DNA from: Ginglymostoma cirratum
Lineage: Eukaryota
DNA length: 64,000 bases
NCBI GenBank assembly: GCA_024137785.1
Contig: JAHRHZ010000029.1
Location: forward strand, 11,825,812-11,889,811
Direction of reading: 5' to 3'
A model generated the notes under the pieces. The model was given only the letters and a program-made list of their open reading frames with translations. It was not told the origin of the DNA and did no database searches. The stretch's first letter is position 1. The number at the start of each line of letters is the position of its first letter. Both the position numbers and the translations under genes were made by a program. Positions 4,818-58,155 of the stretch are shown piece after piece.

Positions 4818-5702
4818 CGAGGTTGTAGACTTGCTCGCTGAGCCGGTGTGTTTAATTGCAGACGTTTCGTCACCCTGCTAGATAACATGATCAGTGAGCC
4901 TCTGGTGACACGTTGGTGTTCTATGCTGCTCCATTTACAGCATAGCAGAACTGGAACATTTATACAGAGTTTTGAAAAGGAATGGATACCCATAAAACAC
5001 AATCCACCATTACCTCTGGACAGACCACAACAAGAAGACACAACACGGCCAGACACACTAGTTACCCTACTGTATGTCAGAGACATATCAGAGATGACCA
5101 CAAGACTACTCCAACCCCTAGATATCAGGGTAGCCCACAAACCGACAACCACCCTGCGACAGCTACTGACGAACGCAAAGGATCCCATAGCCACAACCAA
5201 TAAAACCAACAAAATATACAAAATACCATGCAAGGACTGTGAGGAACACTACATAGGCCAAACTGGAAGAAAAATAACAATAAGGATACACAGACACCAA
5301 CTAGCCACCAAGAGACACGATCAATTCTCACTGGTCTCAATACACACAGACAAAGAAGGACACAAATTTGACTGGGACAACACATCCATAATACCACGAG
5401 CCAAACATATACATGCCAGGGAATTCCTGGAGGCCTGGCATTCCAACCAGAACTCCATCATCAAACATGCTGAACTGGACCTGATATACAAACCACTGAA
5501 AAACAGAACTGTAAATGATTCCAACCACCCCAGCAAACCGAGGCATATAAATAATAAGTGGGACAGAACACCAACGCTTCACCGGAGGCACGACCTATGA
5601 TGTTACCTAGCAGGGAGATGAAACATCTGCAATCAAACACACCGGCTCAGTGAGTAAGTCTACAACCTCATCCACAACCCGAGCTACAAATCTTCTGAAA
5701 AG
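4818..5702 (+). mobile_element. 5'-truncated Penelope-like element (GIY-YIG endonuclease) with inverted pLTR and 12-bp TSD (family D)
   Basis: ORF 4848-5600 contains KIYKIPCKDCEEHYIGQTGR..RIHRH..H..F.W..AREFLEAWH (PLE GIY-YIG). About 4819-4925 is the reverse complement of ~5563-5669. ctaaatactgta at 4806-4817 and 5703-5714. Confidence 0.92.
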
Positions 5703-7560: not shown

Positions 7561-9089
7561 GACGTCCCCATTACTTCAGCAAGATCCTGCCCCACGGGTA
7601 GTACTACAGCTACCAGCATGATGTAAATACAGAAGTAAATTTCACAAGGCACATGCCTGAGCCGCTTAAGGGTCCATCCTGGTGCTGGGTTCACTGAAAC
7701 ACACATGGTTCACCATATGGACACAATTTTAATTCATTTCATTCACAGTGGTAGAACAGGACTTGGGCACCACTTCTACTCTCCTGCTGGTTCCCACACT
7801 ATTACAATTAAAATTTAAAGTGTCAGCAATGTTCACAGGAGATGCATGTGATAACAAAGCAGATGAAGCTTTTCATTGGTGAAACCCAACATCAGCTGAC
7901 AATGTAGTAGCTACTGGTGGAAATCATGGCTCTTCATCATGGTACAACTTTCTTGTTCAACTCCAACACCATTAAGACTTATTCAGAGCCAAAGGTGGCA
8001 TAGGTGTTTTTAACAATTAAAGTTCACTTTAAATATTTCACATTATATTGGTTTCATTTCCTTCATGTCTGCATCATTGTTATTTGCTGAGGGTATTTGG
8101 GTCAGAGAACTAAATGTACTGGCACACCTCATGGTTGGCATACATTGATGGTTTTAGGGGAATATAGGGTTCTCTCTTTATTGTGAAAGAACTAATGTGT
8201 CTTTTTGTATTCACTCTTTATTGAATATTCATGTTAATGTCCAGTGCTGTCCTCGGTATTCTGTGTGACATGCTTGAATCTGGGAGTTCAACTGGCCTGC
8301 TTTTCAATGCATTCTAAGAGACATTGTTCAAGATCCTTTTCATTGAAGGTAATTGAACTGTTGTAGAAAACTGAAGACCTTGTAAGGAGTCTGCTGGCCA
8401 TCACTTTGAGATGGGCACACATGTGGACAATAACCACACTGCCCCATAGGTTCCTAATTTCCTTACCATGACTGAAAGTTCTCTCCACCTCCCACCCCGC
8501 ACAGAAAGCCACAGCCTTCCCTCTTCCCTTCATCGATGTGCACAATCATACCCCAACTCTACTTCACCACTGATCTCCACTTTCTGGTCACAAGTGTCCT
8601 TGCAAGCTGCCACCCTCTTGTTTTGACCCTTGTGCTGAGTAGTTAACAAGGAAAACTCTCACTGTTGCACACAGCAGCGTAAAGCTGACTGTTTTACATA
8701 AGTATGAAGTGCCACATCATTTTTGCTGCTAACAAATTTATCAAGAAGGTAGGATATAATTTCTTAAAAAAAGACATTGTAAGCTAATAAGTATTCATGC
8801 CAAACAAATGTATTACAATTGGAAATCCATTACAGAATAGTTTAAGACCTGAAACACCACAAATGTGCTGCTGACTTACTGTCCCCATCTTAACTCACTG
8901 TTTGGAAACCAAAATGTTGTCTCATAGTTAGCTCAGTCAACCTGCTCTGCAGGTTCTGACCCCTCTCCCATCATTGAGGCACACTAGGTTCATCTTAATA
9001 TTGACCCAGGCAAGATCCACATTATCATTGAAATGTACAAGATCCATCTTATGACAAGTCCATCGTAACACTGGGACAAGTGATGTCTA

Positions 9090-9620
9090 TGAGACTGTAA
9101 GACGCAGGAGCAGAAGTCAGCCACAAAGCCCATCAATTGTACTTCAACATTCAATGAGATCATGACTGATCTGATAATCCTCAACTCCACTTGCATCTCT
9201 TTGCCCATGGTCCTGAATTCCCTGAGATAACAAGGTGTAGAGCTGGATGAACACAGCAGGCCAAGCAGCATCAGAGGAGCAGGAAGGCTAATGTTTCAGG
9301 CCTAGACCCTTCTTCAGAAAGGTTTCTGAAAGGGTCTAGGCCCGAAACGTCAGCCTTCCTGCTCCTCTGATGCTGCTTGGCCTGCTGTGTTCATCCAGCT
9401 CGACACCTTGTTAACTGAGATTCTCCAGCATCTGCAGTTCCTACTAGCCCTAAATTTCCTCACTGATTTAAAAATCTATCTATTTCAACTTTGAATATAG
9501 TTAACAATCCAGCCTCGATAGCTTTCTGCATTAAAGAATTACACAATTCACTATCCTCTGAGAGAAATTCTGTGCTAACTGGGCAATCACTTATTCTGAG
9601 ATTATGGTCTCTACTTCCAT
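9090..9620 (-). mobile_element. CR1 LINE 3' end interrupted by a Penelope palindrome
   Basis: Minus-strand ORF 9460-9966 ends LTIFKVEIDRFL (CR1 ORF2 C-terminus); typical CR1 3' UTR at 9090-9220. Confidence 0.7.
9224..9445. mobile_element. Head-to-head palindromic Penelope pLTR unit (family A)
   Basis: Arms ~9228-9320 and 9323-9413 are near-perfect reverse complements around cagaaa-gg-tttctg; degenerate TSD tggtcctgaattccct / tagccctaaatttcct. Confidence 0.88.
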
Positions 9621-9652
9621 ACTTCCATACAGCAGAACACTTGCCTGAATTT

Positions 9653-9761
9653 AATCCTGTTCTGAAGAAGAGTCTCTGGACTCTAAATGGTGACTGTGCT
9701 TTCTCTCCACGGTCGGTGCTGCACCTGCTGAGTTTCTCCATCAATTTTCTGTTTTTGTTTG
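9653..9761 (+). mobile_element. Penelope-type pLTR insertion (family B) with 14-bp TSD
   Basis: acttgcctgaattt at 9639-9652 and 9762-9775; interior ctgaagaagagtctctggactc...cacctgctgagtttctcc. Confidence 0.75.
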
Positions 9762-10374: not shown

Positions 10375-11283
10375 AAATCCAGGAGGGGAGTGTGGACCGT
10401 GACTCCCTTGTCCGCTCCACACTCCCCTCCAGCCCCACCACATCCGGCACTTTTCCCTGCAACCGCAGGAGGTGCTACACCTGCCCCTACGCCTCCCCCG
10501 TCACCCCCATCCCAGGCCCCAAGAAGACTTTCCACATCAAGCAGATGTTTACCCGCACGTCTGCTAATGTGGTATACTGCATCCACTGTTCCAGATGTGG
10601 CCTCCTCTACATCGGGGAAACCAAGCGGAGGCTTGGGGACCGCTTTGCAGAACACCTACGCTTGGTTCGCACTAAACAACTGCACCTCCCAGTCACGAAC
10701 CATTTCACCTTCCCCTCCCACTTCTTAGACGACATGTCCATCCTGGGCCTCCTGCAGTGCCACAACGATGCCACCAGAAGATTGCAGGAACAGCACCTCA
10801 TATTTTGCTTGGGAACCCTGCAGCCCAATGGTATCAATGTGGACTTCACAAGCTTCAAAATCTCCCCTCCCCCAACCACATCCCAAAACCAGCTCAGCTT
10901 GTCCCTGCCTCCCTAACCTGTCCTTCCTCCCACCTATCCCCTCCTCCCATCTCAAGCCCCGCCCCCATCTCCTACCTACTAACCTCATCCCGCCCCCTTG
11001 ACCTGTCCGTCCTCCCTGGACTGACCTATCCCCTCCCTAACTCCCCATCTACACTCACCTTTACTGGCTCCATCCCCGCCTCTTTGACCTGTCTGTCTCA
11101 TCTCCACCTATCTTCTCCTCTATCCATCTTCTGTCCGCTTCTCCCTCTCTCCCTATTTATTTCAGAACCCCCTTCCCCTCCCCCATTTCTGAAGAAGTGT
11201 CTAGGCCTGAAACGTCAGCCTTCCTGCTCCTCTGATGCTGCTTGGCCTGCTGTGTTCATCCAGTTCTACACCTTGTCATATCA
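10375..11283 (+). mobile_element. 5'-truncated Penelope-like element (family A): GIY-YIG ORF, C-rich 3' region and pLTR with hammerhead motif
   Basis: ORF 10392-10916: GTFPCNRRRCYTC..SANVVYCIHCSRCGLLYIGETKRRLGDRFAEH..EQHLIF.LGTLQPNGIN. CTGAAGA at 11189-11195 and GAAACGTC at 11209-11216. Confidence 0.92.
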
Positions 11284-12587
11284 AATATTCCCAGTGTTTT
11301 CTTTGTATCCCCTGTCCATCTGTTCTTACCTTGGTGGCAACTTTACCAGTGTAGTAGCTGACAACCCAATAGCTGTTGCCCATTTACATTATTGTTTGGA
11401 GTTCTTTTGAATTAAAAGACAGGGATGAATGTTTATTGGAACAAGTATTGATAGCTCCTGTGTTTAATCAGCTGCACTGGTGAATTCATATAAGGATTAC
11501 TGGAGACTGGAAAGGAAGTGTGAAAATTCCACAACCTAATGTACTGTGTTTACAATGGAAAGATTGTCAGTTCCTGGTCTTTGAGTACTCTGGGAAACAA
11601 TAGCACGCAGTCACCATTTGGAAGATGTGCTAGTCAGGAAATGTTACATTTCACCTCTCACATATTAATTCTGCCTATTCTTCTCACATTCCATTCTCTC
11701 CTGGAGATTGTGACTTCACACTGGGATTAATACTTGTTGAACTGGAATCCTTCACCGGTTGGTCATTATTTATATGCTGGAGGCTATACATTGGTCTGCC
11801 ACCTATTAAATAAATTTTGATTGGCTGTGTTTTTTTTATTTTTTTTAATTCGTGCTACATGTAGGGCCAGTGAGTGATTCTATTGACTAGGGCTGAACGA
11901 GGAAAACAAGGAGAATCTTTTGGTTTCATTTCCTGGTCATTGTTTTGGTGGAACATGTCACCCAACCTTATGTTGGATTTACATTCTATTGATCGTGAAG
12001 TATCTCTGATCTGCTTAACCAGATTGCGACATATTTTAGACCACCAGCTGAAGATGGATTGAGACTGGCTGAGAGAAAGATTATTTGTCCTTGAAACCAA
12101 TCACGTAAAGGGAGAGTTTGTGCATTGTCTACAGCCTTGAACAGCTCCTACATATCTGAGGCTGAGATGGGATGAATGGTTCTAATTTTAAAGTTGTGCT
12201 TCCTTCTTCTGGATTCCACAACCAGGAGAAAAAGATGTACTTCTTTCTATCTCCTCCATCAAACCATTTAATCACCTTAAATACCTCAATTAGATCATCC
12301 CTTAAATCATTTCATTTAAGGGAATTGAGGATGTGAAATCTCCTGTTAAGCTTTCACAGTGAAGACAAACATGTTCATCATTTGAAGCACTTGATAGGGT
12401 TTCAGCAGGCACCAAGATGATTGCTCGGGTCAATCAGCACTCAGAAGGTTCTGCTGCCAACAAGACAGGATACACAAGCCAACTGAGTTATGGATGAATT
12501 GATTGCTTGCAATTTCATCTGCTTGTATTTTCTCTGCCCCTCTGGTACGCACTTGCTTTTGAATTAGGCCACCCTGTTTTCTTATTT

Positions 12588-21689: not shown

Positions 21690-23365
21690 CGTGTAACAAT
21701 TTTGGAGGAGCAAAGAGATGTACTCAAAATACTACAATCCAGTACACACAGACAAAAGGGCTGATGGAGTATTGGCAGTTATCCCAAAGCGATTCGATTG
21801 GAAAGGGGAGGAAATTGCACCAAAGGGATAAAGGTATAGCACACATATACAGAAAACTGCATTTTAAAAAAGGAGAGTTACATGTCAAGTAACTATGGAC
21901 CAGTCAGTTTAACACCAGTGGTAGGAAAAATAATAGTGTCCCTAATAAAGAAGAAAGTAGAAAATATATCCATAAACCAAAAATATAATAGTTGTTAGCC
22001 TGCATGGATTTCAAAAGGGAAACTCTTGCTTGACCAAGCTCGTTGCATTCTTTGTTGCAGTAATAGAGAGGGTCGGTAAGGGTAATGTAGAAAATGCGGT
22101 TTACCTAGATTTCGAAATAACCTATAATATGGTGTTACATAGTAGATTAATTAATAAAGCCACAGTATGTCAAATCAGGAGACAAGTCACAGAATGAATA
22201 ATTAATTAAAAGATGAAAGAACTGCAGATGCTGCTAATTAGGAACAAAAACAGAAGTTGCTAGAAAAGCTCAGCAGGTCTGGCAGCATCAGTTCCGAGCA
22301 AGGGTCACCAAAACCAAAATGTTATCTCTGATTTCTCTTCACAGATGCTGCCAGACCTGCTGAGCTTTTCCAGCAACTTCTGTTTTTGAAAATGAATATT
22401 TAGTTGGTTGCAGGACGAAAGGTTGCTGCTCAGTGGTAGAAGGTTAAAAAAAAAGTTCCATCGGGATCGGTGCTGGGTCTAGTGTTGTTTAAAAATTACA
22501 TCAAATATACAATATATGTATTTGCAAAAAAAACCTCCAAATTACTAAAAGGAAGTGGTGGGATTTATTTGAGGAAAACATCAGTGATTGACAAGAAAAT
22601 ATCAATAATCTTGTAGAATTGGCATATAATTGGTAAGTGAATTTCAACATATGTATGATGTGCTACATTTTGTTGAAAAATTATTTTTCCTCCTATATAA
22701 AATTAACTTTTCATCTACCAAGATCATCTGCAAAATACAGAATTCACATCAACAATTTCCATTACACATCACACATAAAAAGAACAAGAAGTTAAAAAAA
22801 AGTATTAAAAATGGTTGACAAACTTGTACAGAATGATGGATAGACCACATTTGGAGTCCTATGTTCATTTCTGGTCACCATATTATAAGAAGCATGTGAA
22901 GGCGACGGAATGAGTGCAAGAAAAAAATTACAAAGATAATATAAATTTCTGAGATTATCACAAACAGGAAAGGATAGTCAAGCTGGGTCTCTTTTCTCTG
23001 GTAAAGAGAAGGCTGATGGAGGACCTAAGACAGACAGACAGACAGAAGCACACACATGCATTCACCCTCACATACATGCACACCCACAAAGTGCCAGACT
23101 AGAAGCAACCAATTTAAAATTGTCAGCAAAAAATCAATTTGGGAATTCAGGAGAAACATCCTTACCTGGAGGGTGGTGGAATTTGCCACAGAGGTCAACA
23201 ATGTATGTGCATGTAAGGGAAGGTAAGATAAGGAAATGAAGAAGAGAATAGAGATATGTGCTGACAATTATGTAGGGAAGGGTGAGAGAAGTTTCATTGG
23301 AGAATACATGCCAGCATAGACTGGTTAGCCCAAATAGTCAGTTTCTATTCTCTCTGTTATATTCA
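21690..23365 (+). mobile_element. Highly decayed CR1 ORF2 (RT to 3' end)
   Basis: FKKGE..NYGPVSLTPVVGK, HGFQKGNSCLT, VYLDF, GSVLG and RPHLE..V.FWSPYYKK remnants with many stops. Confidence 0.8.
22208..22390. mobile_element. Palindromic family B pLTR unit nested in CR1
   Basis: aaaaacagaagttgctagaaaagctcagcaggtctggcagcatc is inverted against gatgctgccagacctgctgagcttttccagcaacttctgttttt; degenerate TSD aatgaataattaatt / aatgaatatttagtt. Confidence 0.8.
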
Positions 23366-41892: not shown

Positions 41893-42787
41893 GAGTGTTT
41901 CCTTTTGCTGCCTCGGTCAGTAGAATTCTCCTCAATTGATAATAAAATACTGATAATAACCAAACTGAATTGTATAAAAATAAAATTATAATAAAATAAA
42001 ATAATCATACAATAATTTTATGTGCTATCTGTGCCACTCTACTCTGTAGTGGCAATCTCCATGCTGGTCTGTCCACTTTAATTCCTGTGTTAACTTTACA
42101 TACGAGATAAACAAGGTGTCCACCTCTTTCTTATTACATTTAGGGATTCAGTGTGCAAACTTGACTACTTCAGCCTTTAAGAGTTAGGCATGGTTTCCTC
42201 ACCTCTACTCTGCCTTCTCAAATTGAGCTGATTCAATGTGACTTCCCTTCGACTTTCCATTGTTTAGAATTCTCTTTCTTGCCTTTCTCTGCTTCCCTGT
42301 CCTGTAATAATTTCTCCTTTGTTTTATACTGTTGGAATTCTATTTCACATGTCTTTTGCTCATGTTTGAATTTATCGGCTTCATCATCCTTATTTTCAAG
42401 CAATAATTATTTGGCAATTTCTGATTCCCGGCTATCAGGTGGAACTCTGCACTCAAGTGCCTACATAACCCAGTTAATTCTTTGAAATTTAAGACTTTTA
42501 GTTTTTCATAAGTTCATCCATGCTGTTCAGTGAAATAATTAGTAAGCATTGATAACTTAGCACTTAGTGCAACCTTTTTGAAATTTCTCTTTCTTTTAAT
42601 AAACAACTTTTTGAACAAACAGTGCTTTTCTTCCAATCAGATTTTGCTGTTCGCCTGAGGAAACATCCCAAACAACCCCATGTGAGGTGGAAGAACCTGC
42701 TCCCATCTTTACACCACCCCTCGATCGATGGTAGCAAACGTTTTCATTTTCTTTTTAGCACTCTGGTATCTCACTTTAATTAAATGC

Positions 42788-42952
42788 CACATGACCCCAG
42801 GTTATAGTCCAACAAGTTTATTTAAAATCTCAAGCTTTCAGAGCACTGCTCCTTCATCAGGTGACTTTTAAATAAACCCGTTGGACTATAACCTGGTGTC
42901 ATTTGACTTTTGATTTTGTCCACTCCAGTCCAACACTGGCATCTCCACATCA
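42788..42952. mobile_element. Palindromic Penelope-type pLTR unit (family C) with minus-strand hammerhead motif
   Basis: ccaggttatagtccaacaagtttatttaaaa (42797-42827) is inverted at 42866-42896; the minus strand reads CTGATGA-A-GGAGCAGTGCTCT-GAAA-GCTT. Confidence 0.75.
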
Positions 42953-49284: not shown

Positions 49285-50120
49285 TTGCATTCATACAGTA
49301 CTTTACTGTAAATAAAATATCCTAAAATGATTCACAGAAGAGTTATAAATCGAAAACGCCCATGTAAGGCAATATTGCGCCGATGACCAAATGCCTGCTC
49401 CTATGATGCTGCTTGACCTGCTGTGCTCATCCAGCCCCATGCTTGTTAGCTCAATAAAAGACCTAAGTTTAAAGTGGCATCTTACAGGAGGAAAGTGAGG
49501 TGAAGAAATGGAAAGATATATGGTGGTGATCCCACAATTTAAGGACTCGGCAGCTGGTGGCCTACCACCATTGGTGCAGAAACTAAAATCACGGTCATTC
49601 AAGAGACCAGAATGAGACGGATGCAGATATCTCAGAGAGTTGTGGAATTGCAAGGGAATACAGAGGGAAGAATGGGCTGGGGGATTGAAGAACAAAGATG
49701 GGTATTTTAAAATCAAGGTGCTATTTATACCCTCTAGTCTATGGAGATTATGAACACAGGGGCAAAAATACACAAATAACTACGGGTGCTGGAAGTCTGA
49801 AATAAAAACAGAAGTGGAAAGAGAGGAGAGTTAACATTTTGGATCCAGAGCTGAAGAACATTCTGAAGTTGGGGCATTGAACTCAAAACGTTAGTTTGCT
49901 TTCTCTTTCTGGATGCTGCCAGGGCTGCTGAGTTTCTACAGCAATGTTTGTCAATGAATACAGGGTTGACTGGTGAGTGTAATTTTGTGAGAGGTCATTG
50001 GTAAGTAATAGTGTTTTTGATTATCACAAAATGAGTAATAGAATGGGGAGGCCTGCACAGGAGCATGTTAAATTCTGTTTCATAAAAAGGCATGAGTGAG
50101 GGTTTCAGTAGCAGAAAAGT
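49285..50120 (-). mobile_element. L2 LINE fragment with nested pLTR pieces (family A ~49394-49447; palindromic family B ~49762-49953)
   Basis: L2-type tail and body on the minus strand; the family B unit is flanked by atgaacacaggg (49750-49761) and atgaatacaggg (49954-49965). Confidence 0.6.
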
Positions 50121-51372: not shown

Positions 51373-53789
51373 CTATGAAGTTTTTATCATCCTGGAACAA
51401 ATTTCCCAAAGTCTGTGATAAACTATCAGAGGTTCGGGGCAGAGCCTGCAATTTTCTGACCCTAGTGGGAGTGGCAGATTCGTAGAATCATAGCATGATG
51501 TTGCATGGATGGAAGCCATTTTGACTATTGTGCTTCTGCAAGCTCTTTAGTAGAACTACCCAATGAATTCCACCATCCCACATGCACTTTGCCAAACTTC
51601 CTGAATTATCTCCTTTTAAGTATAATCCAAGTTCCTTGTGAAAGTAGTCCCGCACCACCCTTTCATACAATGGATTCTATATTACACCAACTCATCTTTA
51701 AAAATTGTTATCTCAAGTTGGTTCTGATTGCTTTGCCAATCACCTGAAATCTGCATCCTCTTTGTACTGACCAAATGTGACCAGGGTTATTCTCCTAACC
51801 CTTCAATTGTACAATACTAATTCCATGTATTTTTTTCTTATTCCCTCCAATTAATTCTGATTGCGTTAAATTCTATCCTAATTATTGTGATATAATTTTC
51901 TTTAGGGAGTTTGTGTCAATGCCTTAGTGGCGCAAAAAAAAGGTCTTCTTATTATACTAGTTATCTTATATATGTCCTATTGACCAGTAACTGAATATGC
52001 TCTAAACACATTCTTCAATATACTCCATCATATATTTTCACATGTTAGTTATTTGACACATTTGTGAATGTCATTTGCCGAACCACAAATGCTTACTGAC
52101 ATTAGTATCTCAACATAACGTTTTCCTTTCTGGACTTTAGGTGATCTTATCAAAAGATCAAGGTATGCATACATATGTGATGGGGCTCTCTACCTGTATC
52201 ATCTTGCTTTCCTACCCCTGCATGGGACTGATACCTTGGATATCCACAGGAACATCAAATTATACTCTCTTAAAACAAAATAACAATGATACATTACCAA
52301 GAGAAAATTGAAAATTACGAATCTACTCAATTCCAACTTGCTCTAAAATGTATATGGATGTCAGATTACACACATGATGTTTAATCCTAATTTAGTATTG
52401 TATATTTTTCCTTAACTCTAACTCCTCTCCTCAAACACATTCGCCCATACAAGTTACACATTCCACTAATTAGTATCTGACCTCATTCAACAGCAATGAA
52501 TTAACTTTACTGTTCAACAATATTTACTTATTGGGGCCTGAACAGTGTGGGCACTCCTAAGAATTGTAATGAAATCTTACAAGAAGTCCTATCTCAATGT
52601 TGGGAGCAACTAACAAAGTTCCAGTTGTTGAGGCACACTTAACACTCAAGAACTGCAAGTTGTCTGTTAAAGGGAAGCATTGCTTGTTAATGACCTTATT
52701 AATGACACAACTCACCTCATGAATGTGCAGCTTCCTACATTAACACCCACTGCGAGCAAACTAGATTCTGAGCGTTCTTGACATGGATTTCAGAGTGGAC
52801 ATCAGGGACATTCATGCTGGATACTAGGCATGAGCCTCTCAGGACATGCATCATGGGCACCAACCACATGCACCTCATGTCCACTGACTTTGGCACCTGA
52901 CATGTGCCAGCCTCTAAGAACCCTCATAGCACATTTCCACTCCACTTACATGACGCTTCTGCACTTCAATGCTGCACCTTAGAGTGAAACAACAACAATC
53001 AACTGCAAGAGAGGACACTTTGTTCTTAGGAATGCAAATGTAGGCCATGGACTGGACCAGGCTACATCTCCAAGCTGTTGGCTTGCTTTCATTGTACACC
53101 CAGATAAGCTCAGTGTAAGTGAGCACGATGAGAGCAAGCAAAGAGCGCAGAACTGCAGCTTGGTCCAATCCATGAGCTGTGTGAATGTTCCTGAGTACAA
53201 GGTTCCTTGCTGCAGCATTGCAATGATAGTTGACAGTGCAGCATTGAACTGTAGAAGTGTCCTGTGAGTGAATTGAAGATATGCTACAAGGTTGTTTTAC
53301 ACATCAGATGCTTTGTATGTGGACGTGGGGTGCATGTGCCTGGTGCCTATGGAGAGTGCCCCAAAATTTTGGTACTGAGTTCCAGCATGGAAGTCCTTCA
53401 GAGGAAACAGTGAGCTGAATCTGCTGGGTACAGCCTCCAATTTCATGTCCTGTTTTCCTGATATCTAGTTGATCGGACAAGTTTTGTAAGGTCAGAACCT
53501 GAAACTGATAGGGCTATTTGATCAAGGAGCTTAACGGGAGTTAATTCCAGTTAGTTGGCAACATGCTGCTACCTGCTGGGGATAGTGCCAGGCTGTGTGA
53601 GAAAATCATGAAAGGTGAAGTGAGATGATCCCGATGTTGAGATGGGCCTTGCCAGACTTCTCCTCCAATTCTGTCACGCATCTCACAATAGCTGATGTTG
53701 CTTGGGTCCTTGTAAGATTCTGCCCCTCAGGCTGAGAGGTGGCCCTTGCCATCTAAGGAGGGAGGACTTTATCCCCGACATGTGTCTTG

Positions 53790-56542: not shown

Positions 56543-56570
56543 AATGGTTAGATAACCATTTCAAAGGGGA

Positions 56571-56764
56571 AATAGCAAGAACTACAGATGCTGGAGTCAG
56601 CGATAACACGGTGTGGAGCTGGAGGAACATGGGAGGCCAGGCAGCATCAGAGGAGTAAGAAAGTTGACATTTCGGGTCAGGACCCTTCCTCGGAAATCTG
56701 AAGCCTGACCCGAAACGTCAACATTCCTGCTCCGCTGATGCTGCCTGGCCTGCTGTGTTTGTCT
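56571..56764. mobile_element. Palindromic family A pLTR unit with 13-bp TSD
   Basis: atttcaaagggga at 56558-56570 and 56765-56777; arms are inverted around ggaaatctgaag. Confidence 0.88.
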
Positions 56765-58155
56765 ATTTCAAAGGGGAGTTAGCCCTTGTGTCCTGGACCA
56801 ATAGTTACGCATCAATCTGCATCAGTTAAATGAAAAGTTATCTGACCATTATCACATCGCTGTTGCTAGAACTTGCTGCACACAGAATGGCTGCTGCATT
56901 TCCTTTATTTGAACAGTGACTACACTTATAAAAAGTTAATTGGACATGAAATGCTTTGGCATGTGTATATAATCCCTTCTGATCTTATTGTAATTATTAG
57001 CCCTATCCAAATATATGATGATGCATGTACTTTGGAGATTGATACCTTCAAATAGATTTGAAATAAGTTTTATTTGTAGCTGTAAACCCAAATTATAAAA
57101 GCTATACAAAAGATCTTTTTCTCCATTTCTGAGATCCTTTGTGATGTAATTTGGATCCTTTTTAAGTATTAAGTGTCATGCATATTTCTGAGGCATTTTT
57201 AATTTAGACTGATTTCAGAAACAGTTCGTGTAGCTCCAAAACTAATGAGTCTCTAATGAAACTGAAGAACAGAGATATTTGCACTCCTCATCTCATGAAG
57301 AGTGATAGATATGTGGAATAATTAATGTTGCTTTGACTGGCAATTTTTAATAATTGGGCATAGGCCTGATTGATAATAACAAAGATTATAAGAAAAACTA
57401 TAGTCCTTGATATTTTGATGACCAGACAGTCTGGCGCATTGAAACAGTTGAAATGCATTTGTCAAGCAAATGGTTCAGCCGGGAATATAAATGTTAGATT
57501 GATATCCTGGATTTTATTTTTCATTCTGGTACCTTCACCAGCCGAGGAATTTCATTTTTCATTGAAAGCTGGGCCTTTAATTAGAAGATTAAATAAGTTA
57601 ATGTGAATGTTTGAAAAGGCTTCTTTCCTTGTCTCTTTGGCCTCAATCTTGCACTTGCTCCTGCATCAAATGTGAAGTTGCCTATATGGCTGATGTACTT
57701 TAATACCAGATGCAGATGAAAAGTAACTTCCTGCAAAGTGGAACATACCGCTTGCGTCCGAAGATGTGAAGATCTCATAATTTAAACAGCCTGGACAAAT
57801 GCTTGTATCCTCTTACTTTTCTACATTTCAATCGAACACACTTATGGATCCCAGTTGTTAACTATATGAGAAGGGATTCTGGGTCAACCAGTTTAATTGG
57901 TTTGCGTTAGAGCAGCTGCTATCAGGTGAGTACAAATGTGTTGCAGGTGGCCAAATGTCACCTCAGAGAATATTCAGGTCAAGAAGAAACTCATTAGGGG
58001 TGAGAGATTTGATTTTTGTCAATGAAGCAGCTATTAGAAAGTTAGACATTTCATTATTTATTATTATTGTTAGAAGATATGCCAGTACTTTTAGTCAGTC
58101 ATTTTTCTCCTTGTCCTTTCAAAATCTATGTATTATTGTATTGGCTGATGGATGT

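Follow-up and report, generated by a model that had tools for sequence, protein, structure and literature searches.

A head-to-head pair of Neptune-type Penelope-like element ends in Ginglymostoma cirratum as a probable by-product of integration

Structure of the palindrome and of related pairs in the window

The window is the whole stretch of 64,000 nucleotides that was analysed. At 9224-9448 it contains an element of 225 bases in which two pLTR copies lie head to head (Table 1). The inverted repeat arms (9222-9311 and 9330-9419) have a length of 90 nt and are 93% complementary. An earlier note on this DNA had recognized a near-perfect palindrome with a 2-nt spacer, which is the GG at 9321-9322. 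For the palindrome RNA, a fold of -177.2 kcal/mol (z -22) is predicted, and 0 of 200 shuffles were equally good. The note had placed the element at 9224-9445; its palindrome is correct, but the one-sided tail of about 30 nt and the 12-bp target duplication were overlooked. The element is thus asymmetric, as the right arm alone is tailed.

The two hammerhead cores are 8 nt apart and both are damaged. The plus core at 9326 reads CTGAAAGGG with a 2-nt deletion, and the minus core has GAAACATT in place of GAAACGTC. The drift of both cores (2-nt deletion on plus, GTC to ATT on minus) had been described accurately. The hammerheads are passengers, and the copy, a decayed stump, shows no sign of function. 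Neither a reverse transcriptase (RT) nor a GIY-YIG domain is encoded by the palindrome itself. A microRNA precursor was rejected because no Rfam match reached the gathering score: the whole window gave five matches, all to miRNA families below that score and none to a hammerhead family.

In two runs of another organism, Logan contigs extend over 8700-9268 (with 37 differences) and over 9418-9623, and no single contig spans the whole element. Hence, both outer junctions exist outside the present assembly. Directly left of the insertion, 9120-9192 is a piece of another abundant repeat (higher depth, loose ends). At 9660-9760, there is a solo pLTR that resembles family B and has a hammerhead-type box.

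The same architecture had been proposed for four more sites. Head-to-head pairs with a one-sided tail (judged by eye) are indeed present there, but a hammerhead on each strand is found at 9224 only; at the other four sites, one arm is without a core or has its core deleted. The pair at 49762-49953 is too decayed to rank among the five inverted repeats detected in the window. For the family C pair at 42788-42952, no convincing flanking direct repeat or target duplication was found. Another inverted repeat, at 52922-53291 (56 nt, 79%, spacing 258 nt), was unmatched by five queries.

Table 1 Features of the palindrome at 9224-9448 and of related elements in the window
Feature	Position	Strand	Remarks
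Left target-site duplication	9212-9223		12 bp, 2 mismatches to the right copy; final 2 bases also match the arm end
Untailed pLTR arm	9224-9320	-	Probable RNA 5' end to about position 99
Minimal type I hammerhead remnant	9290-9317	-	GTC to ATT (stem III pair broken), one stem II change
Junction GG between arms	9321-9322		
Tailed pLTR arm	9323-9419	+	Portion common to both arms
Minimal hammerhead remnant	9326-9351	+	CUGANGA box with 2-nt deletion
One-sided PLE tail	9420-9448	+	About 30 nt at this site (family positions about 100-133)
Right target-site duplication	9449-9460		
Separate same-family insertion	10377-11286	+	GIY-YIG-like frame (10377-10913; weak Pfam match, E 0.0011), then body-attached untailed pLTR (11186-11286)
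Family B pair	22193-22405		15-bp flanking repeats (22193/22391); decayed core on plus only; left-arm tail (by eye)
Family C pair	42778-42952		Intact-looking core on minus only; right-arm tail (by eye)
Decayed family B pair	49750-49966		13-bp flanking repeats (49750/49954)
Older family A head-to-head pair	56558-56783		19-bp flanking repeats (56558/56765); tail left; right arm short, core deleted

Family identity and genome-wide census

By protein motifs and linker, the arms are assigned to the pLTR ends of a Neptune-type Penelope-like element (PLE). In the window, a GIY-YIG-like frame precedes the arm; a first look at the 4.36-Gb genome gave 138,936 candidates for this frame. The natural 525-aa frame of family copy L177 matched GIY-YIG with E 7.7e-05 (above cut-off) and RVT_1 with E 1.6e-04 (below cut-off); that of copy L176 matched GIY-YIG only, below cut-off. 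As read in the sequence, the family protein has an RT followed by a C-terminal GIY-YIG with CCHH, and its CX4CxxC linker is CNRRKCYTC. A CX2-5CxxC linker ahead of the endonuclease is a mark of Neptune/Nematis (PMC8557442, in part). The pLTR with its minimal hammerhead sits after the endonuclease frame and before further element sequence: together with its native upstream sequence, the arm is matched exactly 31,364 times in the genome, and 1,404 arms continue past the tail into further element sequence. The frame opened from the hammerhead ends by codon 47 in the copies read; hence, no ORF start is claimed. By eye, the family core has the PLE minimal hammerhead features of metazoan type I hammerheads, namely an unpaired base after the first box, the G10.1-C11.1 pair and a palindromic loopless stem III (PMC4209133, in part). 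Three young-subfamily copies (L247, L254, L272) have four T at their start, the probable RNA 5' end, and continue past the tail; they are candidate source-type 5' ends. A second frame in the window, at 4842-5600, has a weak GIY-YIG match (E 0.021) and is probably another PLE fragment.

A 26-letter two-sided pattern detected at least 3,573 head-to-head centres in the genome (control 0). For the young subfamily, a one-sided marker gave 3,114 matches, many of which are counted twice. Close duplicate centres border 400-N stretches in six of eight loci checked; these are probably assembly breaks at young hairpins, which distort the counts. Such stretches are flanked by a palindrome centre on each side at L306:657-1056, L308:684-1083, L309:595-994 and L310:646-1045, as well as in L278 and L299.

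Arms were also collected from sample blocks which were picked at round coordinates and are hence non-random; five of the first ten blocks were all N and were dropped. In 791,789 readable bases, window included, there are 106 arms at 80% identity or above, 16 of which adjoin N and were left out of the class counts. One tail is present in eight of nine close pairs and none in the ninth, and the 73 unpaired arms comprise 32 tailed, 34 untailed and 7 other. Arm 3' ends group at 97-99 and 131-133. Relative to the A that precedes the core, 40 of 63 non-body arms have their start at -2 to +10.

Among 63 gap-free copies examined, 48 have both arms intact; at a threshold of 75%, 38 of these have one tail, one has two and nine have none. 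If each arm chose its tail independently, about 12 of the 48 would be two-tailed, as against the one observed. A target duplication of at least 10 nt flanks 20 of 33 gap-free tailed copies, compared with 2.5% of 1,056 mismatched pairs. Four head-to-head insertions of 2-3 kb have duplications of 15-17 bp, overlapping arms and one tail each. Young copies are under-sampled in these comparisons: 21 of 30 with the commonest junction adjoin N stretches.

Junctions, arm kinship and the shared stop point

The first 50 centres listed contain 47 distinct junctions, and a wider, partly selected set contains 72 among 92. Both arms are complete in 24 of the 50 copies. In this set, divergence between the two arms within a copy is 6.5%, compared with 9.8% between copies of the same class and 11.1% overall. 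In these 24 copies, 14 rare variants are common to both arms, as against 0.7 in shuffles. Short arms are no closer to short than to long arms (p=0.69, 24 copies; p=0.14, 38 copies), and seven copies with the commonest junction do not form short-arm and long-arm lineages either (p=0.72). The earlier note had tied a by-product of integration to centres and arm lengths that vary per copy and to palindromes that do not cluster. The junctions do vary and the palindromes form no clades; the arm ends, unlike what had been set out, are fixed because they coincide with the two 3' end points of the element and its probable RNA 5' end.

Arms of different origin also occur in one copy. At an ATG/AAG site, 197 of 3,573 centres are mixed, and a neighbouring A-to-T control gave 43; inspection of 20 mixed copies suggested a single-site change in most. 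In L236 and L228, the two arms belong to different subfamilies. Taking these arms and the excess of mixed centres together, some pairs used two templates.

Junctions are occasionally shared. The commonest one, of 11 nt, has 169 exact matches and is enriched in the young subfamily; nine of 30 copies are gap-free, and of these, five are tailed on one side, three on the other and one has no tail. L329 and L330 (centres near 1500) are separated by 584 kb, and on the readable side their flanks are unrelated. They have the same 22-nt templated junction and a private 1-nt deletion, and L330 is without a tail on the side where L329 is tailed. Either the same snap-back occurred twice on RNA of one source, or the junction was inherited. 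Rare inheritance of junctions at the level of the unit is thus possible. Two further cases were noticed. The centres of L148 and L150 share, at the junction, a piece foreign to the family, GGAAGTGA, which may be the upstream flank of one source locus. L136 and L137 (212 kb apart) are alike in junction and right flank and unlike in their left arms (tailed versus untailed, different subfamily), a pattern of duplication, recombination or mis-assembly.

At 9224-9448, the start of either arm is no more than a few bases away from the A directly upstream of the hammerhead core. We take the sequence at this stop point, CCATTTC, to fit the initiator consensus. The length of its T-run depends on the type of copy. 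Of 31,416 body-attached copies, 52 have four T and 31,364 have three T. Among 7,803 copies cut off at the stop point, four T occur in 2,731 and three T in 5,072; the patterns used here exclude C at -1 and include some mutated body copies, and some of the four-T rows may owe one letter to the flank or junction. Where the junction has a spacer, the T-run is equally long in both arms in 18 of 27 cases (expected 8.0). The growth in cut-off copies together with the match between arms suggests that slippage took place at an RNA 5' end and that the arms have a common source. The match fits one molecule or one locus alike, and it could also result from a fixed run at the source locus or from later arm-to-arm conversion. 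The shared variants could likewise be explained by a source locus or by such conversion. At position -1, 65 of the first 100 cut-off rows listed were tallied by eye as 35 G, 23 A and 7 T after 35 body-attached or full-palindrome rows had been dropped; about 26% G is expected at 41% GC, and templated junction inserts confound the tally. The excess of G is suggestive of a cap-derived G at this position and is given no weight here.

Origin of the palindrome

The element at 9224-9448 is probably a single Neptune-type PLE insertion, with two 5'-cut-off pLTR copies head to head in a 12-bp target duplication, likely made afresh by both nicked strands priming on RNA of the same source. An endonuclease would make a staggered cut, and the two 3' ends would prime at the two internal start sites of the element, one each. 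One priming per start site would give one tailed and one untailed arm, which would explain the one-tail rule directly. Both cDNAs would run off at the probable RNA 5' end, the initiator-like CCATTTC, and their ends would be joined by microhomology end-joining with snap-back inserts. The joining presumably resembles repair by polymerase theta. We are highly confident that the palindrome is a by-product of integration formed de novo, and nearly as confident that both arms come from the same source locus. That they come from the very same RNA molecule is close to an even question, leaning slightly against. More tentatively still, each palindrome may be the footprint of one dimeric PLE complex, in which both target strands would be primed on a single RNA molecule, one subunit per start site. 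The slipped 5' U-run would then be a natural per-molecule barcode, arguing against antisense self-priming, and a minority of junctions would be passed on by RNAs whose start lies within a head-to-head junction of an earlier insertion.

In vitro, the PLE protein of Anolis cuts and extends both strands, and its two internal start sites bound the tail (PMC11167929, in part). The protein is a predicted dimer and requires RNA reaching 172 nt into the ORF; ribozyme cleavage is unnecessary, as ribozyme mutants still insert (PMC11167929, in part). This Anolis Poseidon element (PAc) thus resembles the present family in its start sites, the extension of both strands and its dispensable pLTR hammerhead, but it belongs to another clade, whereas the present family has the Neptune/Nematis linker motif. 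Head-to-head products are absent from the parts of PMC11167929 covered.

The priming of two ends has to be weighed against fold-back, in which the first arm to be made serves as the template for the second, by cDNA snap-back or by self-priming on antisense RNA, and the endonuclease trims one end to leave the tail. Self-priming on antisense RNA is the published proposal (PMC3846280, in part). Fold-back predicts shared variants and equal T-runs as well, and snap-back pieces do occur, as 19 of 32 long junctions hold at least 6 nt from the arm start (without a chance control). However, the arm with the tail is 5'-shorter than its partner in four of six uneven close pairs and in three of the four 2-3 kb inversions, a set selected for a long open frame and therefore biased in arm length. 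A copy of the untailed strand gains no tail and a copy of the short strand is no longer, so simple fold-back cannot yield short tailed arms. Arms of mixed subfamily (L236, L228) and unpaired arms that finish at both 3' sites about equally also speak against it, and sense RNA works in vitro (PMC11167929, in part). Hence, we regard fold-back as unlikely, its antisense version being weakened, and favour two primings over self-priming.

That a self-amplifying non-autonomous mini-element, retrozyme- or MITE-like, is transcribed and re-inserted whole is quite improbable. Its fixed arm ends, its own target duplications, the complex junction common to L329 and L330 and the 169 matches of the commonest junction would suit such a unit. 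Against this, junctions are diverse and arm lineages absent, the commonest junction has its tail on either side, and the tails of L329 and L330 disagree. No shared centre, clades, symmetric ends or fixed short target duplication were found, L329/L330 being the one exception. The arms have no editing-type A>G / T>C asymmetry (p=0.46, 38 copies), and the RNA stretch needed by the Anolis protein may lie beyond the stumps. Non-LTR retrozymes share the origin from PLE ends and the type I hammerheads (10.64898/2026.07.22.740005, in part). They need at least two tandem direct units with complete ribozymes, whereas the palindrome is an inverted pair with damaged cores and has no tandem units. In addition, the predicted read-through RNA hairpin, in which stem II has a pair probability of 0, would bury the ribozyme. 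The retrozyme-like unit mobilised on its own, one of two options in the earlier note, is therefore unsupported in view of the 47 junctions in 50, the lack of arm lineages, the opposite-strand hammerheads and the stem II probability; the other option, a recurrent product of Penelope inverted-5'-end integration, is supported by the variable junctions and the same lack of lineages.

Least probable of all is a stop point set by ribozyme structure or cleavage, or by a small hairpin upstream of the core, rather than by transcription start. The stop does adjoin the core, and body-attached copies have an inverted pair, TTCAGAA...TTCTGAA, upstream. Yet the cut site (after GTC) falls within the retained arm, the sequence runs on through the stop point in more than 31,000 copies, and T-run growth is nearly confined to cut-off copies. 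Ribozyme mutants that insert in vitro (PMC11167929, in part) and the internal promoter with initiator of D. virilis Penelope (PMC2377424, in part) also favour a transcription start.

The layout as such is known. PMC3846280 (in part) reports an adjacent inverted pLTR, a one-sided tail, a target duplication and palindromes at junctions, and PMC8557442 (in part) treats the layout as typical of PLEs and the origin of their inverted repeats and tails as an open question. The "under-described system" of the earlier note had thus already been published. Adineta Pen2a and EN+ PLEs (PMC3846280; scheme in PMC8557442; both in part) are alike in head-to-head pLTR, one-sided tail of 30-40 bp, target duplication and microhomology junctions. 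Compared with Pen2a, the shark stumps are without an ORF-bearing body, neither arm extends beyond the probable RNA 5' end, and there are thousands of copies. Schistosoma has opposite-strand hammerhead pairs about 100-700 bp apart (PMC4209133, in part), whereas the cores at 9224-9448 are separated by 8 nt, show damage on both strands and cannot dimerise in cis. A literature search, which took in few subscription papers, returned no title on ORF-less head-to-head stumps or T-run slippage; the supplements of PMC11167929, PMC4209133 and 10.64898/2026.07.22.740005 may cover both.

The palindrome is real and of an ordinary kind; its use lies in the evidence that it offers on mechanism. Thousands of minimal products set quantitative rules (one tail per pair, arms of one source, a shared stop point, matched T-runs), which are testable in the existing in vitro system. 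In annotation, the stumps could be mistaken for MITEs or microRNA hairpins; in the present assembly, they also coincide with 400-N breaks.

In L1 twin priming, two target ends are primed, the inversion lies inside one target duplication, and the arms copy different parts of the RNA. The palindrome is alike in the inversion within one target duplication and, on the favoured reading, in the two primed ends; L1-type twin priming was rejected for it because the arms at 9224-9448 copy the same stretch with full overlap. L180 and L187 are internal inversions of the element body, and L180 is the non-overlapping exception, which resembles L1 twin priming.
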